A stretch of 64,000 nucleotides of DNA. Source: an uncultured Chloroflexia bacterium (GTDB lineage: Bacteria > Chloroflexota > Anaerolineae > CG2-30-64-16). The stretch is taken from positions 576,001 to 640,000 of the forward strand of contig CAVZDU010000002.1 in the NCBI GenBank assembly GCA_963774265.1. The letters run 5' to 3'. Under the pieces are notes generated by a model, which had not been told where the DNA came from, made no database searches, and saw nothing but the letters and a program-made list of their open reading frames with translations. The first letter of the stretch is position 1, and every line of letters begins with the position of its first letter. The translations under genes and the position numbers were made by a program. This document shows positions 106-56,875 of this stretch, in pieces.

Positions 106-868
106 TCATCGCCCAGGGAGCGATGTCCGCACTGTATATTTGTACCGATCCCCGCGGCTGACCATGCGGGTATACTCTACAGGTTCATCGTCATCCGAGT
201 AAATGATGCTCTCCACAAGCAGCAGCGGTGAACCCGGCGACACCTCGAGCAACTGGCTCTCCCGCAGACTGCCCGCCACTGCCTGGATTGTCGCTTCCGA
301 CCGGGCAAAGGTTACGCCTTGAAGTCGCAAGACACGCCACAGGGAGGCCTGACCCTGCAGCTGCGCAGGCGTCAACACGACATGGGCTGGGAGCCTGAGA
401 TGGGAGGTGGATACAATCGTCGGCTCATCGTCGACCAGGCGGAGCCGCTCGACGATCCAGATCCACTCCCCCTCCTCCACCCGCAGTGCAGCAGCCACAT
501 CGCCGATCGCAGGTTCCTGCCGCAAGGAGAGCAGGCGTGAGCCGGCCCGAAGTCCGATTGCCTCCAGCTCCTCAGAGAAGCTGCGGAGCTGTGAGAGCTG
601 TCGCTGAATCTTGGGGCGAGCGACGAAAGTCCCTTTTCCCTGATGCGACACCAGGTAACCTTCGCGTACGAGGTCGTTGATCGCCCGCCGAACCGTGATA
701 CGACTGACACCGTAGGTGTCACAGATCTCACGTTCGGTCGGAATCGGGTCACCCTTCTCCCAGTGGCCTTGCTCGAGCGTGCCCAGCAGCGCCTGGCGCA
801 ACTGGTGATACAGCGGCAGGGGCGACGTCGCGGTCAACCGCGGCAGGATCCAGAACAGCTAGTCCCAT
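106..868 (-). CDS. GntR/HutC-family transcriptional regulator (wHTH + UTRA)
   Basis: PLYHQL..IPTEREIC..YGVSRITVRRAI..QGKGTFV and C-terminal UTRA (EPVEY..SRGDRYKY); probable ATG at 868 with a frameshift near 835. Confidence 0.93.
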
Positions 869-930: not shown

Positions 931-959
931 AATATAGCACACGTCGAAAACCCTGTCAA
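931..959 (-). promoter_or_regulatory. Sigma70-type promoter of gntR
   Basis: Minus strand TTGACA-17 bp-TATATT with extended TG. Confidence 0.7.
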
Positions 960-1104: not shown

Positions 1105-1975
1105 ATGGCAAGTTTGGACTACGTGCATGCTACGTCCGTTGCAGACGCGGTGGCGCTCCTGAATGGCCCTGGACTGCGGTGCCGCCCCATCGCCGGGGGC
1201 ACCGATCTGGTTGTGGCAATGCGCCAGCGCGGTCCCTGGTTCGATCGCCTGGTGGACATTACAGCGATCCCGGAATTGTGCGAGATCGAGGAAACCCCGG
1301 CGGAGATTCGCATCGGCGCGGCAGTGACATTTGGCCGCGCAGCTGCCAACCTCCTGCTCCGCACGGCCGCCCCGATGCTGGTCGAGGCGTGCCTGACTGT
1401 GGGCAGCCCACAGATCCGCAACACCGGCACGCTCGGCGGCAATGTGATCAACGCAGCACCCTGCGCGGACAGCCTGCCCCCGCTCGTTGCGCTGGATGCC
1501 GCAGCCGCACATCGCCGGCCGCGGACGGAGAGCGAGTTCTGCCGGTCTCCCAGCTGACATCCTCACCGCATCAGGCCATGCTCCGGCCCGGCGAATTGCT
1601 CACCCATTTCACGTTTGCCAAACTGCCCGCCTGGCACCCGTTCCACCTTCATTAAACTGGGCCGGCGCAACGCCCAGTCCATCTCCAGGCTCAGCATCGC
1701 CGCGGCCGGTCGCATCAACGACGCAGGCGTGATGGATTTCGCCCGGCTGGCGCCGGGTGCAGCGCTTCCTCATACGGAACGCATGCTGGAGGTGGAGGCG
1801 ATGCTGTTCGGGCGTCCTCCGGGCCGACCTGTTCGGAGCGGCTGGGGAGATGGCGTCCAACTTCATGCTCAGCATCACCGGCAGGCGCTGGTCGACGGAG
1901 TACAAAGAGATCGCCATCCGCGGTTTGGTCGAACAGGCATTGGCAGCCGTATTCGGCGACGCCAACCCCTCCTGA
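1105..1975 (+). CDS. Xanthine dehydrogenase family FAD-binding subunit (frameshifted)
   Basis: IAGGTDL, GSPQIRNTGTLGGNV, FIKLGRRNAQSIS across ORFs 1054, 1615 and 1757. Confidence 0.88.
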
Positions 1976-2003
1976 TCCGTCCATCCAAAGGGAGTCTATT
2001 CGC

Positions 2004-2503
2004 ATGCTCATTGAGTTCACGCTCAACGGGAAACAGATCGCTGTTGAGGCGCCAGCGCACATCTCACTCTTGACGCTGCTTCGCGATGCACCTCGATCTG
2101 ACCGGCACCAAAGAGGGCTGCGAGCGTGGGAGAGTGCGGTGCATGTTCCGTCATTGTCGATGGCGAAATCGTCAATAGCTGCCTTATGCTGGCGCCGAAG
2201 GCTGCGGGCCGCTCCGTCCTGACCATCGAAGGCGTCAGCCCTGCCGACGGTTCGCTGAGCGACCTCCAACGCAACTTCGTCGACCACGGCGCGGTGCAAT
2301 GCGGCTTCTGCACGCCCGGCATGGTGCTCGCAGGTGAGGCGCTGCTTGCGCACTCCCCGCTGCCCACACGGGACGAGATCCGCACCGCCCTTTCCGGTAA
2401 TCTGTGCCGCTGCACGGGCTACCAACAGATCGTCGACGCCATCGAAGCAACGGCGCTCGAGCGCGCGGGTACGGCGGCTCCTGCCCCGGTTTACGGAGGT
2501 TGA
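2004..2503 (+). CDS. Xanthine dehydrogenase family 2Fe-2S subunit (frameshifted)
   Basis: GECGACSV, QCGFCTPG, GNLCRCTGY. Confidence 0.92.
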
Positions 2504-2506
2504 GGC

Positions 2507-4827
2507 ATGACTGAACAACAGTACATCGGCAAGCCTGCTCGGCGGGTGGATGCGGCGGACAAGGTGACCGGTCGCGCCCGCTACGTTGCGGATTACCGCC
2601 TTCCGGGGATGCTGTATGCGCGCTGCCTTCGCAGCGAAATACCTCATGCAGCCATCGCCCACCTCGACACCGCACCGGCGCTGCAGGTGCCTGGCGTCCT
2701 CGCCGTCATTACCATTGCGGACTTTGCCAATGAAGGGCGCTTCGGTTTCCCGGTGAGCGACCAATACATGCTTGCCCGGGGGACGGTGCGTCACGTCGGC
2801 GAAGCGATCGCCGCGGTTGCTGCCGAGACGCCAGAGGCAGCCGCGGCCGGGTTTGGCCGCGATCGTCTGCGAGTTGGAGCCCCTTCCCGCGGTGTTCGAT
2901 CCCGAGGCTGCGCTTGCACCTGATGCACCGCAGATCGGTCCCGATCGTGCCGACGGCCGGCATCCCAACTTCCTGCACTCCGAGATCGTGCGCCAGGGCG
3001 ATCCTGTTCGCTGCTCTCGCCGACTGTGAACGTCACGCTGGACGAAACTTACTCTGTCGTGCAGCAGGAACATGCCTACCTGGAGACCGAAGGCGCGCTG
3101 GCGATCCCGACACCGGAGGGAGGCGTCGTCGTCTACGCCTCCAACCAGAGCCCTTTCATCAATCGCGGAAACCTGGCCAACGTCCTGGGACTGGCACAGG
3201 ATCGCGTGCGCGTGATCCAGCCCCCCGTGGGCGGCTCCTTTGGCGGCAAGGATGACCTCAACTACCAGGCCTCGGCGCAATGCGCCGCGTTGGCCCTCAA
3301 GACCGGCCGCCCGGTTCGGATGACCTTCTCACGCGAAGAGAGCATGATCGCCAGCTACAAACGCGATGCGATGCGCATGCACGTGCAGCTGGGGGCAACG
3401 CCGGACGGCGCTCTCAAAGCCTGCAAGTTCGACGGCTTGCTCGACTCCGGCGCCTATGCGTCGCAGAGCGTGTTCACTTCCTGGCGCGCGGCCATCCATG
3501 CGATGGGCGCCTACCGGTACGAGCACTGTCACGTCGACATCAACTGCGTCTACACCAACAACGGCTACGCCGGCGCATTTCGCGGATTCGGCAACACGGA
3601 GGTCTGTTTCGCAATCGAGCAGGCTATCGACGAGCTGGCGGATAGGCTGGGCCAGGACCCGATCGACTTTCGCCTGCGCAACTGCCTGCGCCTGGGTGAC
3701 GAGACCGCGTTTGGCCAGCGGCTGGATGAATCGGTGGGCCTGCCTGAGTGCCTGGAGGCGGTGCGCAAAGCCAGCGACTGGGATCGCAAACGCGCCGCTT
3801 ACGCGCACCAGGGGGCAGGTCCCCTCCGGCGCGGCATCGGCGTGGCCGCGCTCTTCCATGGCACCTCACTCGGTGCGGAAGGGGCTGACTATGCGGGAAG
3901 CACCATCACCGTCGAGGGCGACTATCTCATTGCCCTGACCTCGGGCCTGACCGATTTTGGCACCGGCTCACGCACCGTCTTCACGCTCATCGCCGCGGAG
4001 GAGCTTGGCGTCAGCCCCGATCGGATCAGGATGCTCCGGCCGGACACCGACACGGCCATCGAATCGGGTCCCACGGTCGCCAGCCGCTCGACCATGTTGG
4101 GCGGCAATGCCGCGCGGCTCGCCGCGCAGAACCTGCGCCAGACGCTCGACTATGCGGCGGCCAATCTCCTTCACTGCGAGGTCCACCAGCTCGTGCGAGC
4201 AGGCGAGGGCTACGTCGGGCCCAGTGAGGAGCCGTAAGCTGGGAGCGGTGGTCGACCATGCCCACGCGATCGGCCTGACGCCTTCCGCGCACGGTCGCTG
4301 GACTGCGCCCCACATCCACTGGGACAGCAAGACCGGGCGTGGCGTCGCCTACCTGGCCTATCACTTCGGCGCACAGGTCGCTGAGGTCGAAGTGGACATG
4401 CGCACCGGCAAGACCGATGTCGTCGGCTTCTGGGCCGCGCACGATCTCGGAACGACGATCTTCCCGCCAAGGCGCGGTCGGCCAGGTCTACGGCGGCGTG
4501 GCGCAGGGCCTGGGCTACGCGCTCATGGAGGAGGCGCGACTACGTGGACGGCTACCTGCAGGCGACCAACTTCGACACCTACCTGATCCCCACGGCCAGG
4601 GACGTGCCCGACATCACCTGCATCCTGCTGGAGATGCCGTATTCGCACGGGCCCTTCGGCGCAAAGAACATCGCGGAGCCTGCCCTGGTGCCGGTTGCAC
4701 CCGGCCATCTGCAACGCCATCGCACATGCCACCGGCCGGCGGGTGCGCGATTTGCCAGCCAACCTGGAACGCGTGCTGCTGGGCCACAGCCTCGGGCGCG
4801 GCGATGACGGCCGGTCGTGCAAGTTAG
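2507..4827 (+). CDS. Xanthine dehydrogenase family molybdopterin-binding subunit (several frameshifts)
   Basis: KVTGRARY, QEHAYLE, GGSFGGK, AFRGFG, TVASRS, QVYGGVAQGLG, GAKNIAEP with catalytic Glu. Confidence 0.9.
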
Positions 4828-4882
4828 GACTGAAAATCGGTTGACCTTTTGCATTTATCGAGGAATTCGAAAGGAGCACAAC

Positions 4883-5571
4883 ATGGATAAGCAGCAACTG
4901 CTGGCGCAATCTGTCACGAGAGCCTTCTGGAAACTGATCCGGAGGCAGCCGCGTTGGCAGCCCAGGCAGCCGTCGATGGTGGCGTCGATGCCATGGAGGC
5001 CATTCAGGTCGCCTCCGCGGCGATCGCCAGAGGTTGGTGACCTGTTCGAGAGCGGCGACCTCTACCTGCCCAGCCTGATGCTCGCGGGCGAGGCGATGAA
5101 GCGAAGCATGAGCATCCTGTCACGCTACCTCAGCGTGGAGCAGGCCAGCCAGAAAAAGGGCAAGGTCGTGATCGGTGCAGTGTCCGGCGACATCCACGAC
5201 ATCGGCAAGAACCTGGTGGCGACCATGCTTTCAGTGCACGGCTACGAGGTCGTCGACGTGGGTGTCAATGTCCCACCGATGGAGATCATCGACACCGCGC
5301 AGCGAGAACATGCGCGCTTCATTGCGCTATCTTCGCTGATGACGACCTCGATGCCCTACCAACGCGACGTGCTGGAACTCCTGACGCGAGATGGGCGTTC
5401 GAGACCGCTTCTACGTCGATCGTCGGCGGCGGCCCGGTCACAGCCGAATACGCCAGCCGGATCGGCGCCGACGGCTGGGGGGTGAGCGCGGTGTCCGCGG
5501 TGAAAGTGTGCGACCGCCTGTTGCAGTCCAACGAACGTCCTCCCGTCAAGTCCACCTTCCTTCAGGAATAG
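4883..5571 (+). CDS. Corrinoid (B12-binding) methyl-carrier protein, MtmC/MttC-like (frameshifted)
   Basis: VGDLFESGDLYLPSLMLAGEAMK cap domain; DIHDIGKNLV (DxHxxG); SSLMTTS; IGADGW. Confidence 0.9.
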
Positions 5572-5581
5572 GAGCATAACC

Positions 5582-6970
5582 ATGACACTCAATCGTGATC
5601 GGCTGATGGACGTGCTTGACAAGGCGCACAAAGGGCCCATCGTCAAGCAGTTCGACTGGGACACGCGCACGATTCCCGGCGCGATTGCCGACAAACTCAA
5701 GAAGTACGGCCTGCAGAAGACCTGCGATCCGGCCAATCCGATCAACCAGAACCTGGAGCTGGCGGATCGCTTCTTCGCGGCCGCCCTGGAAGTGGCGACC
5801 GAAGTCGGCATGCTGTGCACCGATACGCAGCGCGCGATCCGCTACTCGCGGGAGGAGCTGATCGCGGGCCTCGAGGCCGCGCCGGCCGCCTTCACGCTCG
5901 GTGAAGGCAAGGAAATCGCCCATTTCCAGCACCGCAGCATCTCCGATCCGGTGGCGCCCATCTGGGTGTCGCCCCTGAGCATTGCCGTGAGCGAGGATGT
6001 CTTCGAACCGCTGGTGATCGGCATCGCCAACGTGCCGGAAGTCGACTGCCTGGAGGGACCCTCCTTCGAGACCATTTGGGGCGCCCCCCTGCGCGCCGGC
6101 TCGCCTTACGAATTGCTGGCAGGCAAGATGCAGGCCCAACGCTTCTACAGCGCCATCTCCAAGGCGGGCCGCGATGGCATCGGCCTGTATGCGGTCGGCA
6201 CCTCGCCGACGCATTACGGCGTGCTGGGCGGGTACGGCGTGCCTGGCGGCTACAAGCCCGAACGCGACATCGTGCTGGTGCTCTCGCCCGTGGAGATCAA
6301 GACATCTTACGAGAACCTGATGAAGCTCGCGCATGCCTACAACTGCGGCGGCCAGACCTACGGCGGCTCGTGGTCGATGATCGGCGGCTACGCGGGTGGG
6401 CCTGAGGGTGCGGCGCTATCCTGCATCGCCTGCACCATCATGTTGTACAATGTCTACCAATGCGTCAACGGCGCCAGCTTCCCGTACGATCTGAAGACCA
6501 TGGGCAACTGCGGCCGCAATGCGTTGTGGGCCCTGGGCGTGGTGTTCCAGGCCCTGAGCCGGAACACGCACATCTGCGCCAATTCCGTGCTCAACCAGAC
6601 CGCCGGCCCGGTGACCGAGTGCCTGCTCTACGAGTCTGCGGTCGGCATGATGACCCTCAGCGTCTGCGGCACGTCCTCCTGCACCGGCCCCCGGACGGCG
6701 GGCGGCAAGTACACCGATTACATCACCCCGCTCGAGGTGAAGTTCGCGGGCGAGGTCTTCAAGAAGTCCGCAGGGATGGGCCTCTCCGAGGCGAACGAGA
6801 TCGCCAACCGCCTGCTCCCGAAGTACGAGCACGAGCTGGGCCACCCGCCCAAGGGGCAGAGCTTCCAACAGTGTTACGACCTGAAGACGCTGCAGCCCTC
6901 GGATGAATGGCGCAAGGTCTATGATACGGTCAAGAACGATGTCATCGCGGCGGGCATGCCGCTGAGCTGA
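5582..6970 (+). CDS. mtmB: Monomethylamine:corrinoid methyltransferase (MtmB) homologue without pyrrolysine
   Basis: 462 aa; WD..IP, CTDTQRAIRY, SPYELLAGK, GGYAGGPE, AGPVTECLLYE, FQQCYDLKT; no in-frame TAG. Confidence 0.88.
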   Translation: MTLNRDRLMDVLDKAHKGPIVKQFDWDTRTIPGAIADKLKKYGLQKTCDPANPINQNLELADRFFAAALEVATEVGMLCTDTQRAIRYSREELIAGLEAAPAAFTLGEGKEIAHFQHRSISDPVAPIWVSPLSIAVSEDVFEPLVIGIANVPEVDCLEGPSFETIWGAPLRAGSPYELLAGKMQAQRFYSAISKAGRDGIGLYAVGTSPTHYGVLGGYGVPGGYKPERDIVLVLSPVEIKTSYENLMKLAHAYNCGGQTYGGSWSMIGGYAGGPEGAALSCIACTIMLYNVYQCVNGASFPYDLKTMGNCGRNALWALGVVFQALSRNTHICANSVLNQTAGPVTECLLYESAVGMMTLSVCGTSSCTGPRTAGGKYTDYITPLEVKFAGEVFKKSAGMGLSEANEIANRLLPKYEHELGHPPKGQSFQQCYDLKTLQPSDEWRKVYDTVKNDVIAAGMPLS

Positions 6971-7059
6971 AACGGAAGGGCCGTGTTTAACCGGATGACC
7001 ATACACTGCGCCCAGTATGACCTGGCCGCCGGGTATGGTCGTTTCATTGGAGATAGACA

Positions 7060-8194
7060 ATGGCAAGCCTGAGCACGCGACTTTTCGATGTGTCGATGAC
7101 GTCCCCGTTCATCCTGGCATCAGGACCGCTATCCTATGATGCGACCGGGTTATGGAAGGCCTACCGCGCAGGTGCAGGTGGCGTCGTCACCAAGACCTTG
7201 CGCCTCTCGGCCGCGGTCAACCCCACGCCCCACATGGTCGTCCCGCGCACTTCCAACCTGCGCGCCACGCTGTTCAACTCGGAGAAGTGGGCCGACCTGA
7301 CCTGGCAGCAGTGGGTTGAGATCGAGCTGCCCCGGATGGCGGACCACCCGGGCCTGCTGATTGCCAGCATCGGTCACACGCCCCCCGAAGGTGTGATTGC
7401 GGGGCCGGTGGCCGGAACCGGGGTGGTTGACGCCATCGAGTGCGTCGCGTACACCAGGGAAACTATTGTGGACCTGATCCGCGCCGTACGCGCGCGCACG
7501 AAACTGCCGATCCTCGCCAAGCTCACGTTCAACTGGGGGGATGAATTGTACCCGGCGGCGGAAGCCGCGCTGAGAGCGGGCGCAGACGGCTTCACAGCCA
7601 TCGATTCGATCGGGCCAACGCTGCAGATCGATGTGGAGACCGGCCAACCGACGGTCGGAGGCGCCGGCAGCCAGGCCTGGATGTCCGGAGCCGCTATACG
7701 GCCCGTCGCCCAGGCAGTTGTTGCCGAGCTGGCTCGCCGGCATCCCGGCGTCCCCATCGTGGGAACAGGTGGCGTCATCCAGGCCGAAGATGCCATCGAA
7801 ATGACCATGTGCGGCGCAGCAGCCATGGGCGTGTGCACCGCGCCGTTGCTGCGCGGCCTGGAGTGGTTTGCCCGCACGCATGAAAAACTCAATCTCTGGC
7901 TGGATGAGCGGGGCTACTCGTCGCTGGATGCCGTGCGCGGCAAGGCGCTGGCCAACTTGCAGGCGGAAGAGGACACGACGCGGCTCGTGTTTGGGTTCGA
8001 GCCGCTGAAATGCACCAAGTGCGACCTGTGCGTTGTGCTGTGTCCGTATGACGCGCGGCGAGATGGAAGGCGAGAAGCCCAGAAGTCCTGAGCTCAAACA
8101 GATCCTTCATGAAGCGCGTTGTCGCGATTGCGGCCTGTGCGTAGAGGTGTGTAAGCCTGGCGCGCTCACCTACGCGAACTGGCCGCGGCCCTAA
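7060..8194 (+). CDS. Dihydroorotate/dihydropyrimidine dehydrogenase (PreA-like) FMN barrel with C-terminal 2x[4Fe-4S] (frameshift ~8060)
   Basis: PFILASGP, GGVVTKT, PILAKLT, MSGAAIRP, IVGTGGV; CTKCDLCVVLCP and CRDCGLCVEVC. Confidence 0.85.
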
Positions 8195-8207
8195 GGGGAT
8201 ACGACGC

Positions 8208-10095
8208 ATGGCCAAGACTGCAAACGTAGATCTGACGACGGGCCGCGTCACGGTGACGGAGACCGCGCCCGGGCTGCTGCGAGATTACCTGGGGGGGCGG
8301 GGATTAGGAGCGCGGCTGCTCTATGACCTCGTCGGCCCGGAGGTCGATCCGCTGGGCCCGGACAACATGCTGATCTTCACCGCAGGCCTGCTGGCCGGCT
8401 CCCCGTGGCCCACCTCGGCCCGGATGCATGTCACCTTCAAGTCGCCGCTCACCGGCACATATGGCTACGCGAATACGGGCGGACAGATCGTGGCACAGCT
8501 GCGACATGCCGGGTACGACGCACTGCTGGTGACGGGCCGCGCGGCGGAGCCGTCCATCCTGCGCGTGACGGACGATGACATCGCGATCGTGCCTGCGCCC
8601 GAGCTGTGGGGCCTCCAGACCGGCGCAGTGCACGACGCGCTGCTGGGTCCCCGGGGCGACAAAAGCAAGGGCTGCGTCGCGTGCATCGGCCCTGCGGGCG
8701 AGAACCTGGTGCGCATTGCCGCGATCATCAACGATCGGGGCCGCGCGGCGGCACGCGGCGGCCCGGGCGCGGTGATGGGCAGCAAGAATCTGAAGGCGCT
8801 CCATATCGTGGCCCAGCGGCGTCCACCCACGCCGCCCGAATTCCGAGACGCCGCCCGGACCGCGATGGACAAGGTGCGCGCAGACCCACATCTTGACGGC
8901 CTGCGGCGCTGGGGCACGCTGGTGCTGATGGACGGCAAGAATGTGCGCGGCGATCAGCCGGCCAAGAACCATCAGTTCGCCCAGGTGCCCTTCATCAAAT
9001 CGGTGAACGCGGCCGCATTCGACAAATACGTCGAAGCGCATCGCGGCTGCTACGGGTGTCCGATCAAGTGCAGCCGCGATTCCGAGGTCGACGAGGGCGC
9101 GTATGCCGTGGAGGTGGAGGGTCCGGAGTACGAGAGCACCAACGCCCTGGGCCCGATGAATTGGGTCAGCGACCCGGAAGCGATCCTGTATGCCAACCGC
9201 CTGTGCAACGAGTACGGCCTGGACACCATCTCAACCGGCGTGACGATCGCATTTGCCCTCGAGCTGCACGAGAAGGGATTGCTGGACGACGAGCCGGATC
9301 TGCCGCTGGCATGGGGCAGCCCGGCAACGCTGCACGGCCTGATCGAGCGCATCGCCTTGCGTCGCGGGATCGGCGACGTGCTGGCCGAGGGCACCCGCCG
9401 CGCAGCGGAGCGCATCGGCCGCGGCGCCGAACGTTACGCCATGCAGGTCAAGGGGCTCGAGCTGCCCCGCCAGGAGCCGCGCTTCGCCAAGGGCTTTGGC
9501 CTGGGCCATGCCACGTCCAATCGGGGCGCAGATCACCTCTACGGCCTGCCGGCCATCGACCTGGCGGGCGCCTGGGACGTGGCCAACCGCGTCTTCCCGG
9601 CCGAGATCGTGCCGGAGCTGATGGACCCGACGAACGAGAAATACAAGCCCGACATGGTGGTTTTCGGGGAGCACTTCTGCGCGGTGACCGATTCATTGGG
9701 CATCTGCAAGTTCAGCACCATCGAGGAATACGCCCTGTTTCCCGAGGACCTGGCCCCCGGCGTTGCTGCGTTATGGGGCCGGCCCGTCACCGGCGCGGAT
9801 CTGCTGCCCGTGGGCGAGCGCATCGTGAACCTGGAGCGGCTGTACAACGTGCGCCTGGGGCTGTCTCGCAAGGACGACCGCTTGCCGGCGCGCTTCACCG
9901 ACCGAGCCCGCGCCGCTCTACGAATACGAAGAGGATCCCCAGACCGGTGAGATGGTCCGCTCCGCCGAGCCGATCCGGTACGGGCTGCTGGTTGACTTCG
10001 AAGGCATGCTGGATCGCTACTACGATCTGCGCGGATGGACGCGCGACGGCCTGCCGACCGCTGAAACGCTGGCACGCGTTGGGCTCACACCCTGA
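8208..10095 (+). CDS. aor: Aldehyde:ferredoxin oxidoreductase family (W-pterin), frameshift ~9905
   Basis: YLGGRGLG, KSPLTG, IGPAGENLV, GAVMGSKNLKA, CYGCPIKC, GPEYE, DSLGICKF, YYDLRGW. Confidence 0.92.
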
Positions 10096-10146
10096 ACCGT
10101 CACACCGGTCAGTGAGAACACATTCGCAACAGGAGTCTACTGAGGC

Positions 10147-11142
10147 ATGAACACGAAGCTTTTCCAGAAGGATTTCATCACCACCCCCGACTGGACCGTG
10201 GAGGACCTGAACACCATGCTCGACCTGGCGTTCCGGCTCAAGGGCGACTTCGCCACCGGCGTGCTGCACGATCACATCCTGCGCGCCAAGACGCTGTACA
10301 TGCTCTTCTTCGAGGAGTCGACCCGCACGCGCAACTCGTTCGAGACGGGCATGACGCAGCTCGGCGGCCACGCGATCTGGCTGACGCCCAAGGCGACCCA
10401 GATCGGCCACGGCGAAAACGCCAAGGACACCGGCATGGTGCTGAGCAGCTACGGCACACGGCATCGCCATCCGCGACTGCCGCACCGGGATCGGCAACAA
10501 GTACCTCTACGAGATGGCGCAGTACGCCGATGCGCCGATCATCAACATGCAGGACGACGTCGATCACCCCTGCCAGGCCATGGCCGACCTGATGACCCTG
10601 ATGGAGCTGTTCGGCCGCGACCTGCGCGGGCGCAAGTTCGTCATCTCCTGGACCTACGCGCCGAAGTACGTGCGCCCGTTGAGCGTGCCGCAGTCGCTGG
10701 TCTGGCTGATGCCGCGCTTCGGCATGGACGTGACGCTGGCCTATCCCGAAGGGCTATCACATGATGCCGCGACGTGATGGAGAAGGCCCGCCAGTTCGCG
10801 GACGAGGCCGGCACGAAGCTCACCGAGACCAACGATATGGACGAGGCATTCAGGGACGCCGACTTCCTCTATCCCAAGTCCTGGGGACCGATCATGGTCA
10901 CCGAGGACGAGGCCGAGGTGGAGGCGATGGCGGCGCAGAACACCGGCTGGCGCGTGACGCAGGAGAAGATGGCGCTGGCCAAGAAGCATGCGGTCTACAT
11001 GCACTGCATGCCCATCGACCGCGGCCACGAGGCCGACGGCGACGTGATCGACGGCCCGCAGTCGGTCATCTACAAGCAGGCCGAGAACCGGCTGCACATC
11101 CAGAAGGCGCTGATGGCGCTGATGATGAGCGGCCGCGCGTGA
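10147..11142 (+). CDS. YgeW-like (knotted) carbamoyltransferase (frameshifted)
   Basis: STRT, HPCQ, WTYAPKYVRPLSVPQ, YPKSW, MHCMP, QAENRLH. Confidence 0.85.
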
Positions 11143-11171
11143 GAGGATCCTGGCCGGGATTTGAGAGGCCC

Positions 11172-12390
11172 ATGCAACCCGAACTCACAGATCACATCGC
11201 CGCGCTGGCCCGGCAGATGACCGGACCCCGCGAGCGCTTCCTGGCCGACCTGATCCGCATCCGCTCGTACACCGGCCAGGAAGGTCCCGCGGTCGAGCGC
11301 ACCCTGGAGGAGCTGCGGGCCATCGGCTGCGACGAGGTATGGATGGACTCGGCGGGCAATGCCCTGGGCCGGATCGGGCGGGGACCGCGGGTGATCCTCT
11401 ACGATGCGCACCTGGACACCAATGAGGTGGCCGATGCCCGCGAGTGGCCGCACCCACCCCTGGAGCCGGTCGTCGAAGGCGATGTGATGTGGGGCCTGGG
11501 CGCCTCGGACTGCAAAGGAGGGGTCGCGGCGATCGTCTACGGCGCCGCGATCCTGGCCACGCTGGGGCGAGACCTGCCCGCGGTGCGCGCCCTGCTGCAG
11601 GAGGTCTCCGTCGTGGTGATGGGCGCGACCCTGGAGGAGGACGCGGAGGGCTTCGCGCTGCGGTCGCTGGTCGAGCGCGATGGGCTGCGGCCCGAGGTCG
11701 TGCTGCTGGCCGAGGCCACCGATCTGACGCTGCGCCGCGGGCAGCGAGGGCGCTGCGAGGTTCGCGTGCGAACGGCAGGCCGCGCGGCCCACGCCAGCCA
11801 GCCCCACCTGGGCGAGAGCGCGATTCTGAAGATGCTCCCGGTGGTCTCGGCGCTGGAGGCCGATGAATGCCGCCTTGCCGGTCGATCCCATCTTCGGCCG
11901 CGGGAGCCAGGTCGTCTCGATGATCGAGGGCCCGCACACCCCTAATTCCGTGCCCTCCTGGTGCGAAGTGGTCGTCGACCGCCGGCTGACGCCCGGCGAG
12001 ACCGCAGAGACGGTCCTGGCGGGCGTGGCCGCGGCAGTCGAGCCCCTGGGGGCAACCGCCCGCATCCCGGAACAACCGGTGTCGACGCACACGGGCCTGC
12101 GGCTGGATGGCCCGGCGTTCTATCCCGGCTGGCTGCTCGCAGAAGATCATCCGCTGCTGGCTGCGGGCCAGGCGACCTGCCGGACGTTGTGGGGGCAGGC
12201 GCCGCGCGTCGACGTCTGGCGCTTTTCCACCGATGGTGCGTATTCCGCCGGGGCAGCCGGCATTCCCACCCTCGGATTCGGACCGGAGGAGGAGCAGTAC
12301 GTACACGCGGCCAACGACCAGGTAAACCTGACAAAGCTGGCCAAAGCCGCGCAGTTTTACGCGCTCTTCCCCCTGATCTTCCAGCGATGA
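11172..12390 (+). CDS. YgeY-like M20 metallo-hydrolase (frameshift ~11865)
   Basis: DAHLDT, GASDCKGG, LEEDAEG, RGQRGR, WRFSTDG..GIPTLGFGP..H. Confidence 0.85.
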
Positions 12391-12442
12391 TCTACGACCC
12401 ATGCTCGAGTGCGGGAGTGCTGATCCATAGGACGGTGTTGCC

Positions 12443-13780
12443 ATGATACTCCTCCCTGAGTACCTGATCGACGTGCCAGGCGAGCCGCCGAAGCACCGCT
12501 GGGGCGTGCGAGTGATGGGCGCCCAGGTGGCCGCGGTCGCATCTCATGCGGACCTGCGCCAGCTTTACCCTGAAGACGAGGTGGTGGACGCAGGGGGCCT
12601 GACACTCTCCCCCGGCTTTGTCGATGCGCATACGCACCTATACGGCGTGCTGGCCCACGGCATCCCCCTGCATAAAGCGCCGTCCGGGTTCTGGCCGTTC
12701 CTGGAGGATTTCTGGTGGCCGCTGGTGGAAGATCGGCTCGACCACGAGATGATCTGCGCTGCCACCGACCGCAACCTGGCGACGATGTTGCGCGGGGGCG
12801 TCACCAGTTTCTACGACGTCACCGAGGCGCCGAACGCCCTGCCCGGCTGCCTGGCGACCCAGGCCAACGTCGTGCGCGCCCGCGGCATCCGCGGCATCCT
12901 CTCCTTCGAGGCGACCGAACGGGTCAGCCGGGATAACGGCCAGCTTGGGCTACACGAAAACCTGGACTTCATCCGCACATGCCAGGAAGAGGCCCGGTCA
13001 GAGCAGAACGGGACACCGGCGGGCCTCCTTTCAGGCTTCATGTGCTACCACACGACCTTCACCTGCTCGACCGGGTTTATCCGCCAGGCGTTTGACCTGG
13101 CCGCGGCGCACGGCGCCACGGTCCATATGCATGTCTCCGAGGGTGCGTATGAGCCCGAACATGCCCTCACCCATTTCGGAATGCGCACGTTCGAGTTCTA
13201 CGACCGCCTCGGCGTCGCGGGGCCGGCCATGCAGGCTTCGCAATGCGTCCAGATCTCCCCTGCCGAGATTGAGATCATCGCGCGGCGCGGGGTGCGAGTG
13301 TCCCACATGCCGTTATCGAATTGCGAGGTGGGCGGCGGCGTCGCGCCCGTGCCGGACCTGCTTGCTGCGGGCGTGCCCGTGGGCCTGGGCTCCGATGGCT
13401 ACATCACCGACATGTTCGAGGTCATGCGCGGCGCGTTCCTGATCCACAAGGCTTATCGCCAGGACCCGCGCGTGATGCCGGCCAACGTCGTGTGGCGCCT
13501 GGCGACCGAGGGCGGCGCGCAAGTGCTCGGGCTGGACCGGGTGGGCCGGCTCCTTCCGGGCTGGCAGGCCGACCTGCAGCTGATCGACTCGGCCCTGCCC
13601 ACACCCGTGGAGCCCTGGAACCTCTACGGCCAGCTCCTGCTGTATCGGAGCCGCCGCGATGTACACGATGTGATGGTGGCCGGCCAGTGGCGCGTGCGCA
13701 ACGGCGCCGTGCTGGGGGTGGACGAGGAGGCGCTGGACGCGAGGGTGCACGAGTCCGCGCGGCGGATCTGGCAGGTCTGA
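12443..13780 (+). CDS. SsnA-like amidohydrolase/deaminase
   Basis: PGFVDAHTHLY..LAHG..FLEDFWW, HMHVSEG, HMPLSN, GLGSDG, ATEGGA. Confidence 0.85.
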   Translation: MILLPEYLIDVPGEPPKHRWGVRVMGAQVAAVASHADLRQLYPEDEVVDAGGLTLSPGFVDAHTHLYGVLAHGIPLHKAPSGFWPFLEDFWWPLVEDRLDHEMICAATDRNLATMLRGGVTSFYDVTEAPNALPGCLATQANVVRARGIRGILSFEATERVSRDNGQLGLHENLDFIRTCQEEARSEQNGTPAGLLSGFMCYHTTFTCSTGFIRQAFDLAAAHGATVHMHVSEGAYEPEHALTHFGMRTFEFYDRLGVAGPAMQASQCVQISPAEIEIIARRGVRVSHMPLSNCEVGGGVAPVPDLLAAGVPVGLGSDGYITDMFEVMRGAFLIHKAYRQDPRVMPANVVWRLATEGGAQVLGLDRVGRLLPGWQADLQLIDSALPTPVEPWNLYGQLLLYRSRRDVHDVMVAGQWRVRNGAVLGVDEEALDARVHESARRIWQV

Positions 13781-13850
13781 GACGACGGAGGCCTGGCCGC
13801 GGCACGAGTGCCCGTAAGGGTCTCAACACACTCGTCAGGCGCGCTATTGG

Positions 13851-13876
13851 AGCCCACGGATCGAGATCCGTGGGCT
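13851..13876. repeat. Perfect palindrome (REP or IS200/IS605-type hairpin) after the operon
   Basis: AGCCCACGGATC-GA-GATCCGTGGGCT. Confidence 0.7.
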
Positions 13877-13993
13877 TCTGTTCTTCCCAGGGTCGGAGAT
13901 CGCAGATGCTCACACATTCCACAGGCAATAGCAGACCCCTGGCCCCACCCTGAATCATCGCCAGTTCTGAACCGCCATCGGCCTCCGCTTACT

Positions 13994-14186: not shown

Positions 14187-15316
14187 ATGTGTTCCAAGTT
14201 TTTCGTAATGATTTTTGTCGTCGCGTTGCTGGTGGCCGGGTGTGCTCGGGCCCCTGCGACGCCGGCGCCGGCCACATCTGCGCCCGCCGCCCAGGCCGAG
14301 CCGACGAAAGCCCCTGAGGCCACCAAGGCGCCGAAGCCAACCACCGCGCCTGTGGCGACCGTAGCGCCTGAACCCACGAAGGCCCCCGAGATTCCGGCCA
14401 CGACCGAGCTGGGCCTGCCCGAAGTCAACCCGCTCGACGTGACCGGTGACATCATCACGGCGGGCTCGTCGACGGTCTTTCCGTTGAGCGAAGCCGTGGC
14501 TGAGAAGTTCCGCGACGAGGGCTACGCGGGCAACATCACGATCGATTCGATCGGTTCCGGCGCCGGCTTCGAGCGCTTCTGCAAGACCGGCGAGACCGAC
14601 GTGTCGAATGCCAGCCGCGCCATCAAGGACTCCGAGTTGAAGAACTGCGCGGCAATCGGCCGCACGCCGATCGAGTTCCGCGTCGGCACCGATGCGTTGG
14701 CGGTTGTCGTCAACCCGGAGAACGACTGGCTGAAGGACGGCGTCACGCTGGCGGAGCTGGCCAAGATCTTCTCGAAGGATGCGACCAACTGGTCCGATGT
14801 GAACCCGGCCTGGCCGGCGCAGCCGATCAAACGGTTCTCGCCCGGCACGGATTCCGGCACCTTCGACTACTTCGTCGAAGCCGTCATGGACAAGGCCTAC
14901 GTGAAGGACGCCACCGCAGACAAGGGCAAGGGCGAGGAAGCACTGCTGGGTGCAGCCAACCTGCAACTGTCCGAGGATGACAACGTGCTCGTGCAGGGCG
15001 TCGAAGGCGACAAGTACGCCATCGGCTATCTTCGGGTTCGCCTACTACGTCGAGAACGAAGGCAAACTGGCTGATGTGGCGGTCGAGGGCGTGGCGCCGT
15101 CGGCCGAGGCTGTGGATGCCGGCGAAATACAAGCTGGCCCGCCCGCTGTTCATCTACTCAGACGCCAAGATCATGCAGGAGAAGCCGCAGGTCGCCCAGT
15201 TCATCAACTTCTACCTGACCTACGTGAATGAAGTCATCGGCCCGGTCGGTTACTTCCCGGCCCCCGCCGATGCCATCGCAGCCTCTGCCAATGCCTGGCT
15301 CGAGGCGACTAAGTAA
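14187..15316 (+). CDS. pstS: Phosphate ABC transporter substrate-binding lipoprotein (frameshifted near 3' end)
   Basis: Lipobox VAGC, P/A/T/K-rich linker, GSSTVFP, GSGAGF, SGTFDYF, LARPLFIY. Confidence 0.93.
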
Positions 15317-15348
15317 CGCTTTCGGCAATCCAGGATATCGCGAGCAGC

Positions 15349-15379
15349 AGGTGGGGAGAGGCAAAGCCTCTCTCCACCT
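15349..15379 (+). terminator. Stem-loop after pstS (mRNA stabiliser or partial terminator)
   Basis: AGGTGGGGAGAGGC-AAA-GCCTCTCTCCACCT; weak U tail. Confidence 0.55.
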
Positions 15380-15404
15380 CTTGCTCTCATACGAGAGTCT
15401 GACC

Positions 15405-15839
15405 ATGACAAATACGACACGAGTTCTCTTTCTCTGCACCGGCAACTCGGCGCGCAGCCAGATGGCTGAAGCATTACTGCGCAAGCACGGGGGTGATCGC
15501 TTCGAAGTGCACAGTGCGGGTCTGGAGCCAAAGGGCATTCATCCGTATACCCGGCGCGTCCTCGCGGAAGTCAGTCTCGACATGGCCGGTCAGAGCTCCA
15601 AAGACCTGATGACCTATCTTGGCAAGCAGCACTTCGGTTACTTGATCACCGTCTGCAGCAATGCCGAGGAGCGGTGCCCCGTCTTTCCAGGCGTCTCCAC
15701 CCGGCTGCATTGGCCGTTTGAAGACCCGGCCGCAGCTTCGGGAAGCGACGACGAGAAGCTGGCTGCGTTTCGTCAGGTGCGCGATCAGATCGAAGCGCGC
15801 ATATTGGCCTGGCTGAAAGCGCCGGACTCACCTGACTGA
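15405..15839 (+). CDS. arsC: Thioredoxin-type arsenate reductase (LMW-PTP fold)
   Basis: LFLCTGNSARSQMAE, ITVC..ERCPVFPG, HWPFEDP, FRQVRDQI. Confidence 0.9.
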   Translation: MTNTTRVLFLCTGNSARSQMAEALLRKHGGDRFEVHSAGLEPKGIHPYTRRVLAEVSLDMAGQSSKDLMTYLGKQHFGYLITVCSNAEERCPVFPGVSTRLHWPFEDPAAASGSDDEKLAAFRQVRDQIEARILAWLKAPDSPD

Positions 15840-15865
15840 ACGGGGACCGCAAGGAAGGACCACCT

Positions 15866-16861
15866 ATGGCCATTAATGCATCCGTGCACTCCGGCAGCGT
15901 CGCGGACTCGTCACAACCCGCTGACATCCTCTCTCTGGGCCGGCGACGCCGGCCCGGCGAATCGCTGATCCAGGGATTCCTGGTCTTTTGCGGCGCGGTG
16001 TCGATCCTGACCACGGTGGGCATCGTGGTTGTGCTGTTTGAAGAAGCGTTGGTGTTCTTCCGCGATCCCAATGTCGGCCTGCTTGAATTCTTCACCACCA
16101 CTGCCTGGCAGCCGAAGATCGGCCAGTTCGGCATTTTCCCGCTGTTATTGGCAACCCTGCTGACCAGCATGATCGGGATGCTCATCGCGCTGCCGGTCGG
16201 CCTGGCGATTGCGATCTACCTCAGCGAATACGCGACCCCGCGCGCCCGGCAGACGCTTAAGCCCGTGCTGGAGATCCTGGCGGGCGTGCCCACCGTGGTG
16301 TACGGCTACTTCGCGCTGAACTTCGTCACGCCGATCCTGCGCGGCATCTTCGGCAGGGATGTGGTGGACATCTTCAACATGGGTTCGGCCGGCCTGGTCA
16401 TCGGCATTCTCATTCTGCCGCTCGTCGCATCCATGGCCGAGGACGCGCTCAGCTCCGTGCCGCGGGGCCTGCGGGAAGGCGCCTATGCGCTGGGCGCAAC
16501 CAAATTCGAGACCGCGGTGAAGATCGTCGTGCCCGCGGCACTCTCCGGGCTGGGCGCAGCCTTCATCGTGGCCATCTCACGCGCGGTGGGCGAGACGATG
16601 GTCGTGGCGATCGCGGCAGGCTCAGGCCCGCGCAATTTCACGAGCTGGGCCGAAGCATGGCGCGGACTCGCCCTGTTCAACCCGTTTGCATCGGGCGAGA
16701 CCATGACCGGGCACATCGTCCGCATTTCGGGCGGCGATCTCAGCTACGATTCGATCGACTATAACAGCATTTTCGCCATCGCGCTGATGCTGTTCCTGAT
16801 TACGCTGGCGCTCAACATCATCAGCCAGTGGGTCGTGCGCCGCTACCGGATGAGGTACTAG
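15866..16861 (+). CDS. pstC: Phosphate ABC transporter permease PstC
   Basis: AIYLSEYA, LAGVPTVVYG, EGAYALGAT, SRAVGETM. Confidence 0.95.
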   Translation: MAINASVHSGSVADSSQPADILSLGRRRRPGESLIQGFLVFCGAVSILTTVGIVVVLFEEALVFFRDPNVGLLEFFTTTAWQPKIGQFGIFPLLLATLLTSMIGMLIALPVGLAIAIYLSEYATPRARQTLKPVLEILAGVPTVVYGYFALNFVTPILRGIFGRDVVDIFNMGSAGLVIGILILPLVASMAEDALSSVPRGLREGAYALGATKFETAVKIVVPAALSGLGAAFIVAISRAVGETMVVAIAAGSGPRNFTSWAEAWRGLALFNPFASGETMTGHIVRISGGDLSYDSIDYNSIFAIALMLFLITLALNIISQWVVRRYRMRY

Positions 16862-16900
16862 CGAATTGAAGATGGAAGATGGAAGGTTGCGGGTGGGAAC

Positions 16901-18210
16901 ATGATGGAAGATAGCAAAGTCGGGGGCGGGTATCCGGAAGGACGGCAACTCCAGTCGTTCGTCACGGGGCGCCAACGCACTGGGCAGATATGGAAAACCC
17001 TTTTTCTGGCCGCGACTGTGGTCAGGCATCATCGCCCTCCTTGCGCTGCTCTACAACGTGATTACCGATTCGTTCGGCTACGTCGCGTACCGCAACAAGG
17101 TGGAGCCAGCGGCCCTGGTTTCGGAATTCTACGCGGCACAGCCGGTCCCCGCGGGTGTTCTCTTTGCAGACGAAGTGCGGCTGGAGGCGCTGCCCACTGC
17201 CGACCAGGTCGCCATGCTGAAGATGCACCTTTCCGCCGGCCGCGTCCGCGCGCTCGAGGCGCAGCAAGCCACTGGCCGAACGGTCAAGCGTCGGAACTCG
17301 CCCGGTTGCTGGTCGCCGAAGTGGTCAAGCCTGAGATCGTCGCCACCTGGACCCTGGCCGAATCGCTCTTTGCCAGGGACGAGATCGCGGCGGAAGCAGC
17401 GCAGATCCCGAATAGCCGGTTGGACTTCCGCAGTTGGGTCACCGGCAGCTTCCTGACCTCGCCCCAGTCGTCCAAGCCGGAGCTGGCGGGCGTCCGCACG
17501 GCGATTTTTGGGTCGCTGTGGGTGACCCTGATCGCGTTCATTTTCTCCGTGCCGCTCGGCGTGGGCGCGGCAATCTACCTCGAAGAGTACGGCGGGAACA
17601 GCCGGCTCGCCCAGTTCATCGAGACCAACATCAACAACCTGGCCGGCGTCCCGTCGATCATCTACGGCATGCTGGGCCTGGCCGTATTCGTGCGCGTGCT
17701 CGAGTCGTTGACGAGTGGCAAGGTCTTCGGTGCGGTCGACCAGACGACCGCGAACGGACGCACCGTGCTCTCGGCCGGTCTGACCATCGGGCTGTTGATC
17801 CTGCCGCTCATCATCATCAACGCGCGCGAGGCGATCCGTGCGGTGCCGAGCGCACTGCGCGAGGCCGGCTACGGGCTGGGCGCGACCAAATGGCAGACCA
17901 TCAGCGCACACGTGCTGCCCAACGCCATCCCGGGCATCCTGACCGGCGTGATCCTGGCGATTTCCCGGGCGCTGGGCGAGACCGCGCCCCTGGTGGTGGT
18001 GGGCGCGTCAACCTTCATCGTGGTGGACCCGAACGGCCCGTTCGCCAAGTTCACGACCTTACCGATCCAGATTTACCAGTGGACCGCGCGGCCGCAACCC
18101 GAATTTCAACACCTGGCGGCCGCGGCGATCCTGGTGTTGCTGGTGTTGTTGCTGGCGATGAATGCCGCCGCCATCCTGCTGCGCAACAAGTATGCACGGA
18201 GTTATAATGA
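16901..18210 (+). CDS. pstA: Phosphate ABC transporter permease PstA (frameshifted; end approximate)
   Basis: AAIYLEEY, NLAGVPSIIYG, EAGYGLGATKWQ, RALGETAPL. Confidence 0.9.
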
Positions 18211-18211
18211 G

Positions 18212-19005: not shown

Positions 19006-19023
19006 TCTCCAAGGAGGTAATGA

Positions 19024-20708: not shown

Positions 20709-20886
20709 GACTCTCCTCCTTTGAACGCTATCGTTCTATACGTTGCTATCCCCTGGGGCAGACCGTCAACTTACTCGGACCCGACTCAATGCGCTCTTGA
20801 TAGCCGCATTGAAAGGCACTCTGGAAGGTAACCTCCGGCAGTTCGGGGGATTTCGCGTCGGGCGCTTCCCGCATTGTCCGAGAAGC

Positions 20887-34180: not shown

Positions 34181-34223
34181 GGTCCGCTGCCCTGACGACG
34201 GCTAACGCCTGGATGTGAAACCT

Positions 34224-34268: not shown

Positions 34269-34296
34269 GTACAAAGCTAGAGCGGGAGTTGGAAAC

Positions 34297-56853: not shown

Positions 56854-56875
56854 CGGTCTGCTCCTGCGCCGTCCC

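Follow-up and report, generated by a model that had tools for sequence, protein, structure and literature searches.

A pyrrolysine-free MtmB homologue and its corrinoid protein in a candidate purine-type ring-degradation operon of a Chloroflexota bacterium

Two kinds of described system come closest to the gene array reported here, which lies at positions 1105–13780 of a 64,000-nucleotide stretch of DNA (hereafter the window) from an uncultured Chloroflexia bacterium (GCA_963774265.1, contig CAVZDU010000002.1, positions 576,001–640,000) and brings together a homologue of the monomethylamine methyltransferase MtmB, a corrinoid protein and a set of genes resembling those of reductive purine degradation. 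On the side of methyl transfer stand MtmB1 and MtmC of Methanosarcina barkeri (PDB 1L2Q, 1NTH), with pyrrolysine (Pyl) at position 202 of MtmB1 and an amber codon in its gene, and the Pyl-free homologue MtqB of Methanococcoides methylutens Q3c, which methylates the corrinoid protein MtqC from tetramethylammonium and choline. MtqB is the first function assigned to any Pyl-free MtmB, the others in a 1,061-sequence MtmB family tree being "of unknown function" according to the available part of that report (PMC13044021). The quaternary-amine systems of the MttB superfamily cited there (MtgB, MtcB, MtpB, MtyB) are built from a methyltransferase MT1, a corrinoid protein, a pterin-binding MT2 and an activase (RamA/RACo).

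On the side of ring degradation stands the reductive urate pathway which, as set out in the available part of PMC12507026, forms 2,8-dioxopurine by XdhD-YgfM and dearomatises it by YgfK and SsnA, the PydA homologue UacX (PF01180) replacing YgfK in C. difficile. The second ring is opened by HyuA, ureido groups are removed by YgeW (PF00185) or UacY and YgeY, and pyruvate is released by YgeX; the published clusters of E. coli and C. difficile accordingly comprise XdhD-YgfM, YgfK or UacX, SsnA, HyuA, YgeW/YqeA or UacY, YgeY and YgeX (PMC12507026).

The best explanation of the window array, judged from gene content and homology, is that a paralogous copy of a reductive purine (urate/2,8-dioxopurine-type) ring-degradation module has received, by insertion, the genes of a Pyl-free MtmB and its corrinoid protein, so that a corrinoid methyltransferase system is joined to a reductive purine module. 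We propose, with moderate confidence, that the MtmB/corrinoid pair may demethylate, at nitrogen, a heterocycle resembling a purine or nucleobase, whose ring would be consumed by the neighbouring enzymes. The source genome (G000; 5.5 Mb in 10 contigs, completeness 84%) holds the window at C2:576001-640000, and in what follows the other G-numbers denote genomes of relatives, L-numbers fetched loci and C-numbers contigs of G000. The nearest named relatives of the MtmB locus are metagenome-assembled genomes (MAGs) labelled Caldilineaceae, Caldilineales, Anaerolineae or "Chloroflexia", and the array is probably a functional catabolic operon of a Caldilineaceae-like Chloroflexota bacterium.

A preliminary description of this DNA had proposed ten tightly spaced, co-oriented genes opposite a GntR gene, among them those of a trimeric enzyme of the xanthine dehydrogenase (XDH) type, a corrinoid protein, an MtmB homologue, a PreA-like flavoprotein and an aldehyde:ferredoxin oxidoreductase (AOR), and Pfam searches, tblastn and frame-aware alignment place all of them there (Table 1). 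Pfam matches on the plus strand comprise Fer2_2, Ald_Xan_dh_C (hammerhead), MoCoBD_1/2, B12-binding, MtmB, DHO_dh with Fer4, AFOR_N/C, OTCace_N, Peptidase_M20 and Amidohydro_1, while the FAD subunit was revealed only by tblastn with intact orthologues from relatives. Intergenic gaps range from -4 to 89 nt, with a 4-nt overlap between the OTC-like and M20 genes if the latter starts at GTG 11139, and the largest gap lying between mtmB and the PreA-like gene.

Table 1 Features of the array and its immediate flanks, in window coordinates
Feature	Position	Strand	Evidence
GntR/UTRA (HutC-type) transcription regulator	106..837	-	PF00392 75 bits, PF07702 108.6 bits
Sigma-70-like promoter site 5' of the GntR gene	931..959	-	11/12 hexamer matches, TG before -10; consensus match only
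XDH-family FAD-binding (medium) subunit	1105..1975 (start ATG 1090 or 1105)	+	tblastn with G014/G015 FAD subunits
XDH-family 2Fe-2S (small) subunit	2004..2503	+	Fer2_2 108 bits; +1 near 2088 and near 2125
XDH-family molybdopterin (large) subunit	2507..4844	+	Pfam pieces in three frames; eight indels; 575/768 identical to L022
Corrinoid (B12-binding) protein, MtmC/MtbC-like	4883..about 5568	+	B12-binding 68.6 bits; DxHxxG motif (DIHDIG); four indels
Pyl-free MtmB-family methyltransferase, candidate MT1, 462 aa, frame intact	5582..6970	+	PF05369 258.4 bits (cut-off 25), profile 4-448 of 450
PreA/PydA-like FMN + 2x[4Fe-4S] reductase, UacX analogue	7060..8194	+	DHO_dh 82 bits + Fer4; one indel near 8059
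Aldehyde:ferredoxin oxidoreductase family (tungsto/molybdopterin) protein	8208..10115	+	AFOR_N 236, AFOR_C 352 bits; two indels near 3' end
OTCase-fold carbamoyltransferase, about 331 aa	10147..11142	+	OTCace_N; three indels; 312/333 identical to G014
YgeY-family M20 hydrolase	11139..12390	+	one indel near 11862; 346/416 identical to G014
SsnA-like amidohydrolase (TRZ/ATZ-MtaD group), 445 aa, frame intact	12443..13780	+	Amidohydro_1 151 bits
Terminator-like hairpin, 13 pairs + T-rich tail	13849..13878	+	70 nt past last gene

The MtmB homologue aligns along its full length with M. barkeri MtmB1 (PDB 1L2Q; residues 9-453, E 1.6e-54), and both are paired with a B12-binding protein. They differ at the site of the special residue, Tyr203 of the window protein aligning to Pyl202 (X) of MtmB1, and no in-frame TAG occurs in the window gene, whose frame is open over 5504-6967; this replacement, without an amber codon, makes monomethylamine an unlikely substrate. 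The protein has 321 homologue clusters at E <= 1e-10, and no NCBIfam model matches it at that threshold. Its presumed partner, whose gene ends 13 nt upstream of mtmB, scores 127 bits against the pyl_corrinoid model of NCBIfam (cut-off 215) and is identical to its L022 counterpart at 145 of 222 positions over the aligned interval 4883-5565. Like MtqB, as described in the available part of PMC13044021, the window protein is a Pyl-free PF05369 member with an adjacent cognate corrinoid protein; the hosts differ in that MtqB belongs to a methanogen with coenzyme M methyltransferase neighbours, whereas here the host is a bacterium and the neighbours are purine-type ring enzymes. With the MT2 candidate and the RACo activators described below as putative partners, the layout of MT1, corrinoid protein, pterin-binding MT2 and activase would be that of the MttB-superfamily systems cited in that report, whose MT1 comes from the MttB family, whereas that of the window comes from the MtmB family and has genomic partners pointing to heterocycles rather than betaines.

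An MT2 and a corrinoid activator are absent from the window, as are HyuA, YgeX and carbamate kinase, all as the preliminary description had it, and counterparts or candidates for them occur elsewhere in G000. A pterin-binding protein (PF00809) encoded 17 kb upstream at C2:557780-558664 is the MT2 candidate, its best NCBIfam match being the methyl-tetrahydrofolate:corrinoid methyltransferase model NF005719 (139.8 bits vs 259), and RACo activators are encoded at four loci, none within 30 kb of the window. Candidates for the methyl-transfer parts missing from the window thus exist in the genome. Carbamate kinase is found at C1:425167 (382 bits vs 358) and a dihydropyrimidinase at C1:361356.

The remaining genes of the array share with the reductive urate cluster, as presented in the available part of PMC12507026, an XDH with its FAD subunit, a PF01180 Fe-S flavoprotein, an adjacent SsnA-like enzyme, a YgeY-family M20 hydrolase and a PF00185 carbamoyltransferase, and with them the logic of reduction, ring opening and then ureido removal. 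The differences are these: the XDH is a PucD-like trimer and not the fused XdhD, the SsnA and YgeW cut-offs are missed, HyuA, YgeX and carbamate kinase are absent from the operon, and AOR and the MtmB/corrinoid pair are added. The FAD subunit is identical to its L022 orthologue at 165 of 286 positions (indels near 1513, 1632 and 1828). For the molybdopterin subunit, the L022 orthologue scores 539 bits against pucD (cut-off 784), and the fused XdhD model TIGR03313 gives 254.7 bits vs 1101.9. Where XdhB of R. capsulatus has the Glu of its GGKE motif, the L022 orthologue has Asp, and the FRGFG Arg is conserved, likewise in non-purine members; neither residue was used as evidence. The PreA-like protein scores 157.6 bits against PreA (cut-off 335), is identical to its G015 counterpart at 300 of 375 positions and resembles UacX at Pfam level only, and AOR is identical to that of G015 at 514 of 629 positions.

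Among the enzymes of ureido and ring hydrolysis, the YgeY-like assignment of the preliminary description holds, since the G014 orthologue reaches 350.5 bits against a cut-off of 321 (the window pieces give 204.3 and 130.9). Its YgeW-like assignment does not: the G014 orthologue of the OTC-like protein, 94% identical to that of the window, scores 211-221 bits against YgeW cut-offs of 453-500 and 255.6 vs 306 for OTC (NCBIfam). The OTC-like protein is closer to ornithine and N-acetylornithine carbamoyltransferases than to YgeW, whose model spans 391-396 positions, and passes no cut-off; with the housekeeping ArgF located elsewhere (C2:20836-21742), the gene is neither ArgF nor YgeW. It is conserved far more strongly than the genes beside it: six genomes from several genera share 89-91% of its DNA sequence, whereas the flanking genes reach about 70-80%. 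For the SsnA-like protein, SsnA is the best match (236-238 bits), at a score below the cut-offs of 444-455.5 (TIGR03314 / NF005540).

G000 also carries a canonical-looking reductive urate cluster at C1:414001-434000 (L098), with a Bmp-type binding protein, an ABC ATPase, a GntR/UTRA regulator, an XDH trimer, an M20 enzyme, two OTC-like genes, the carbamate kinase mentioned above, PALP enzymes, a 1187-aa YgfK-like protein and a true SsnA (C1:432553-433878; 524.9 bits vs 455.5). In the tree of molybdopterin subunits the window XDH falls into a 100*-supported six-row clade with the L018, L022, G014 and G015 orthologues and the XDH of this canonical cluster, a sister relationship that favours a purine-like ring and indicates that the window operon is a diverged paralogue of the purine module rather than the urate pathway itself. 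One genome can thus keep canonical and specialised copies of the reductive purine module. According to the available part of PMC12507026, neither YgfK nor UacX is found near SsnA in Chloroflexota; G000 has both kinds, the one YgfK-like and the other UacX-like.

The association of MtmB with ring enzymes recurs well beyond this genome, so that the proposal passes one check set in the preliminary description, which would have had it refuted by a linkage not conserved in other genomes. We compared 77 loci around MtmB homologues from species-representative genomes by tblastn (>= 40% coverage); some of them may equal G-numbered assemblies, and none was counted twice. The XDH molybdopterin subunit occurs within 10 kb at 16 of these loci, and the fetched flanks further contain a corrinoid protein at 56, an amidohydrolase found with the SsnA-like query at 34 (at least 44% identical at 4), AOR at 9, the OTC-like gene at 5 and the PreA-like gene at 3. 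Clustering of neighbouring open reading frames (ORFs) gave MtaD/TRZ-type amidohydrolases (34), double ABC ATPases (27), Bmp/PnrA-type binding proteins (23), BPD_transp_2 permeases (19), FGGY kinases (15), molybdopterin subunits (15), GntR/UTRA regulators (13), MttB (11) and RACo (10). The 16 XDH-linked loci come from MAGs labelled Chloroflexota, Acidimicrobiia, Oscillospiraceae/Bacillota and Hadarchaeota, and XDH-family genes also stand beside MtmB homologues in Dehalococcoidales-labelled MAGs.

Gene orders differ among these lineages. A GntR gene divergent from xdh-corrinoid-MtmB, in some cases followed by Bmp-ABC, is seen in L018, L019, L020, L022 and L023; five Acidimicrobiia-labelled loci (L039, L040, L051, L073, L077) have Bmp-ABC-SDR-Rieske-amidohydrolase-hydrolase-corrinoid-MtmB-RACo with xdh opposite; Oscillospiraceae/Bacillota-labelled loci have MtmB-corrinoid-Bmp-xdh; and Hadarchaeota-labelled loci hold several MtmB genes with Bmp, permeases, an amidohydrolase and sometimes xdh. 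MtmB is combined with PreA-like, AOR and SsnA-like genes at three loci, in the order dihydropyrimidinase (516 bits vs 393)-SsnA-like-PreA-like-AOR-corrinoid-MtmB in L041 and L046, and MtmB-SsnA-like-OTC-like-AOR-AOR-ThiS-PreA-like in L032. Among the relatives, G001 has a GntR gene and then xdh-corrinoid-mtmB with OTC-M20-SsnA-like-PreA-like further on, G003 has the end of xdh, the corrinoid gene and mtmB on a short contig, and in G008 some 12.6 kb separate corrinoid-mtmB from OTC-PreA.

In the MtmB tree the window protein belongs to a 100*-supported clade of 27 rows, with XDH genes near 10 and an amidohydrolase near 18 of them, and the XDHs beside MtmB genes fall into at least four separate clades of the molybdopterin-subunit tree, so that the pairing of MtmB with XDH arose more than once. 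With 10 molybdopterin-subunit loci in its 5.5 Mb, G000 would offer roughly a 4% chance per random 20-kb span (a figure from this genome alone), and both of its MtmB loci, that of the window and that at C10:44.9-49.1 kb, lie within 10 kb of such a gene. The second of these is part of a methyltransferase island (C10:44922-59699; L096, L097) that holds an MFS transporter, a frame-broken MtmB homologue, two corrinoid proteins and an MtmB homologue, and continues with a Bmp-type binding protein, an ABC ATPase, two permeases, XDH FAD, FeS and molybdopterin subunits and a RACo with an N-terminal 2Fe-2S domain.

A purine-like ring is favoured by an XDH that is paralogous to the one in the canonical cluster, by the enzymes that cleave ureido groups, by amidohydrolases of the purine-deaminase-like kind and by the Bmp-type importers found with the family. 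These Bmp/PnrA-type importers we take to be nucleoside-specific. In the predicted scheme, whose substrate class and order of steps are read from gene content, the MtmB homologue as MT1 would transfer the N-methyl group of a methylated purine-like or nucleobase-like heterocycle to the Co(I) form of the corrinoid protein; the pterin-binding MT2 would then pass it to tetrahydrofolate, and RACo-type activases from elsewhere would hold the cobalt reduced. The XDH trimer could hydroxylate or dehydroxylate the demethylated (or still methylated) ring, the PreA/UacX-like Fe-S flavoprotein would dearomatise it and the SsnA-like hydrolase would open it, after which the YgeY-family hydrolase and the carbamoyltransferase would strip the ureido groups, with carbamate kinase encoded elsewhere; AOR would probably supply or remove low-potential electrons. 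By analogy with the quaternary amines used by the Pyl-free relatives characterised so far, methyl donors that would make chemical sense include cationic N-methyl bases, for example 7-methylguanine, and heterocycles with an acidic NH, for example a methylxanthine or methylurate. The preliminary description had suggested N-methylated purines of the methylxanthine type, of which the purine part is consistent with the conserved linkage and the XDH phylogeny, and nothing points to methylxanthines in particular.

Several observations weigh against this proposal. The molybdopterin subunit reaches none of the NCBIfam XDH equivalog cut-offs, and among solved structures it is nearest to 4-hydroxybenzoyl-CoA reductase and nicotinate dehydrogenase; family cut-offs are likewise missed by the SsnA-like, PreA-like and OTC-like proteins; and the operon contains none of HyuA, YgeX, carbamate kinase or a transporter. 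A weak hairpin of six pairs at 7023-7041, inside the gap between mtmB and the PreA-like gene, means that the array may be transcribed as two units. The counts are inflated by kinship among the 77 loci, many of which are truncated by contig ends. The ring module stands without MtmB in the fetched regions of G007 (same genus), G014 and G015, and the MtmB orthologues 67-74% identical to the window protein lie without XDH in a sugar/MttB context (MttB, FGGY kinase, DeoC, GlcD/F and a sugar-type ABC transporter), so that juxtaposition without a shared substrate is possible. Finally, MtqB, the one Pyl-free MtmB with a characterised function, acts on tetramethylammonium and choline and not on heterocycles, as far as the available part of PMC13044021 goes.

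The alternative that survives best, although we regard it as somewhat unlikely, builds on these last points: two neighbouring modules would meet here without a shared substrate, the MtmB/corrinoid pair belonging to the divergent GntR arm and demethylating a methylated amine or quaternary ammonium compound, perhaps sugar-linked, and the ring genes forming an ordinary purine-type module in a nitrogen-compound catabolic island. The GntR gene, whose product reaches no NCBIfam equivalog cut-off, heads a leftward array that extends beyond the window into a 20-kb minus-strand array (G000:C2:556001-576000; L095) with an FGGY kinase, a DeoC/LacD aldolase, GlcD-like and GlcF-like proteins, an MtaD-type amidohydrolase, a Zn-ADH, a corrinoid protein, an MttB homologue, an aldo-keto reductase, a sugar-type ABC transporter, the pterin-binding protein, GcvH, FolB and FolK. 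This gene set recurs beside MtmB in about ten Anaerolineae-labelled loci, and a type of locus that we call type A (L024, L025, L027-L031, L036) has the order corrinoid-MtmB-corrinoid-MttB-FGGY-DeoC-GlcD-GlcF-amidohydrolase-ZnADH without XDH. The context of type-A MtmB genes is thus that of the arm beside the window operon, so that the window MtmB may belong to the arm, and in L024 the GntR gene is divergent from corrinoid-MtmB with no xdh between. The MtmB-free ring modules of G007, G014 and G015 fit the same picture, as does the use of quaternary amines by all characterised Pyl-free relatives (available part of PMC13044021). Against it, the pair lies on the other strand from the arm, inserted between xdh and the PreA-like gene, and MtmB occurs together with XDH, PreA/AOR/SsnA-like genes or both in lineages that are unrelated and in gene orders that differ. 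Even the type-A loci retain a purine-deaminase-like amidohydrolase and may therefore themselves handle a nucleobase or nucleoside. In L046 (1543-2406), L029 and L036, all bacterial MtmB loci, a gene of the formylmethanofuran:H4MPT formyltransferase (FTR) family adjoins the Zn-ADH and aldo-keto reductase genes.

It is improbable that the methyl group is captured only after ring opening, MtmB acting on a released fragment such as methylamine, an N-methyl-ureido compound or an N-methyl-amino acid. The founding member of the family does use monomethylamine, and the YgeY-type and carbamoyltransferase steps, if they run as in the published pathway, would free N-substituted amines from a methylated ring; yet the pyrrolysine held necessary for methylamine activation is replaced by Tyr203 in a gene without in-frame TAG, and many MtmB loci have XDH, an amidohydrolase and a Bmp importer but no ureido-cleaving enzymes. 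Less probable still is a non-purine N-methyl heteroaromatic such as a methylpyridinium like trigonelline, with the XDH-family enzyme as a nicotinate-type hydroxylase. Nicotinate dehydrogenase of E. barkeri (3HRD chains A and B, 300.6 and 164.9 bits) belongs to the closest relatives of known structure of the molybdopterin subunit, a cationic N-methyl group would resemble the quaternary amines of Pyl-free relatives, and the sole NCBIfam match of the Bmp proteins is a putative B6-type binding protein, far below cut-off. The carbamoyltransferase and YgeY-family hydrolase, however, imply ureido intermediates that pyridines do not give, and in the tree the window XDH groups as sister to the one from the canonical uricolytic-type cluster.

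Simple ORF calling fails on eight of the ten array genes, and a frame-aware protein-to-DNA alignment against intact orthologues was therefore used for the indels and the corrected gene limits. It places 24 indels of 1-2 bases in the array (FAD 3, FeS 2, molybdopterin 8, corrinoid 4, PreA-like 1, AOR 2, OTC-like 3, M20 1) and none in the MtmB and SsnA-like genes, and the corrected frames hold no nonsense codon in any array gene. Elsewhere in G000, rpoB and rpoC are each split over two reading frames (G000:C7:822-8551) and COX1 is in five pieces (G000:C3:106288-107567), which indicates that indel errors are genome-wide and that ORF-based readings of this genome need frame-aware checks. Among public sequencing runs, one contained a 0.10 share of the words of this DNA and two hardly any, and eight pieces of 215-309 nt aligned with it. 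A soil short-read contig of 309 nt, ~96% identical, has one base fewer at 2087 and one at 2122, both break points of the FeS gene; only the read piece over 1880-2190 crosses any break, and the remaining 22 indels are without read coverage. We read the frame breaks as assembly indel errors and not gene decay on account of the indels without internal nonsense, the broken rpoB, rpoC and COX1, the short-read contig and an OTC-like orthologue in another genus that is 94% identical. That the breaks are real and most genes of a decaying operon are pseudogenes is very improbable: 24 indels in eight of ten genes, and an unbroken 5.6-kb ORF elsewhere in the window implying an uneven spread of breaks, would suit it, but it is opposed by the lack of internal nonsense after frame correction, amino-acid identities to orthologues of up to 94%, the equally broken essential genes rpoB and rpoC, a completeness of only 84% for 10 contigs and the absence of both extra FeS-gene bases from the 96%-identical short-read contig.

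Recoding by selenocysteine or an alternative code was considered for the naive in-frame stops (TGA 2921, TAA 4235, TGA 10762, TAA 11943) and rejected, since the stop kinds are mixed, the stretches are out of frame and all stops vanish after frame-aware alignment. A further frame break is probable at 20789-24281 (minus strand), where two overlapping ORFs, one of 373 and one of 859 aa, seem to be the parts of a single BTAD and AAA_16 regulator. The unbroken 5.6-kb frame lies at 26088-31736 (minus strand) and encodes, despite the error-prone assembly, a 1883-aa protein with eight LVIVD repeats and beta-helix/NosD and Big_6 domains.

The promoter-like site listed in Table 1 sits in the 250-nt divergent intergenic region and is the sole such site in 13.6 kb, against 1.7 expected in shuffles; four terminator-like sites were found in the region against 5.7 in shuffles, and only position and stem length argue for the one behind the array. 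Downstream follow pstSCAB-phoU genes (14187-19689). Farther along, a DUF3100 membrane protein, a serine hydroxymethyltransferase and an M20 peptidase stand in a row (32783-36813, plus strand) and may be a unit for uptake and cleavage of amino-acid derivatives with a link to tetrahydrofolate. The stretch 54843-63301 encodes a treble-clef zinc-finger protein, a SPASM/SEC-C protein, a sulfatase with an FGE-type maturase, a Mutator-family transposase fragment (60547-61179) and an N6/N4 DNA methylase.

The demethylation reaction itself would not need O2. The pathway as a whole was called anaerobic in the preliminary description, a label that stays unproven because G000 encodes the haem-copper oxidase subunit I (COX1). 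In caffeine-degrading Pseudomonas, the Rieske N-demethylases NdmABCDE depend on O2 and yield formaldehyde; they resemble the proposed system in removing N-methyl groups ahead of XDH-type purine oxidation and differ in being O2-dependent Rieske enzymes. The window has no Rieske gene, though some Acidimicrobiia MtmB loci carry Rieske/VanA_C beside MtmB. In these Acidimicrobiia-labelled loci a Rieske/VanA_C-type oxygenase, an SDR and an alpha/beta hydrolase are encoded directly 5' of amidohydrolase-corrinoid-MtmB-RACo, possibly an O2-dependent demethylase adjoining a B12-dependent one.

The combination had been presented as not known to be described, and our search likewise found no paper on a linkage of MtmB with a purine module. 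No literature linking MtmB with xanthine dehydrogenase was found (supplementary tables lay outside the search), and among the papers listed on corrinoids with methylated nucleosides, or on monomethylamine methyltransferase with Chloroflexota and Hadarchaeota, none was relevant. The words methylxanthine, caffeine, corrinoid, methyltransferase, Chloroflex and methylated do not occur in the 2,8-dioxopurine preprint. Caffeine has been reported to be N-demethylated slightly in sediment under anoxic conditions, with no enzyme named in the available part of the report (bioRxiv 10.64898/2026.01.06.697959).

Beyond this locus we suggest, more tentatively than for the window itself, that the Pyl-free MtmB homologues of a large bacterial and archaeal clade may be B12-dependent, O2-independent N-demethylases of methylated purines, nucleobases or nucleosides, with 7-methylguanine, methyladenines, methylxanthines and methylurates as candidate substrates. 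The methyl group would then enter C1 metabolism and the ring would enter XDH/amidohydrolase or reductive ring-opening pathways. The recurrent linkage in several phyla with XDH, purine-deaminase-like amidohydrolases, nucleoside-type importers and ring-opening enzymes gives the MtmB family a concrete substrate class to consider which, if the proposal holds, would be its first heterocyclic one. The system would then provide a B12-dependent entry route for methylated purines into the reductive purine pathway and the missing enzyme for anoxic N-demethylation of purine alkaloids, including a candidate for that of caffeine in sediments (bioRxiv 10.64898/2026.01.06.697959, available part), and would tie C1 metabolism in soil Chloroflexota to the turnover of methylated bases from nucleic acids.

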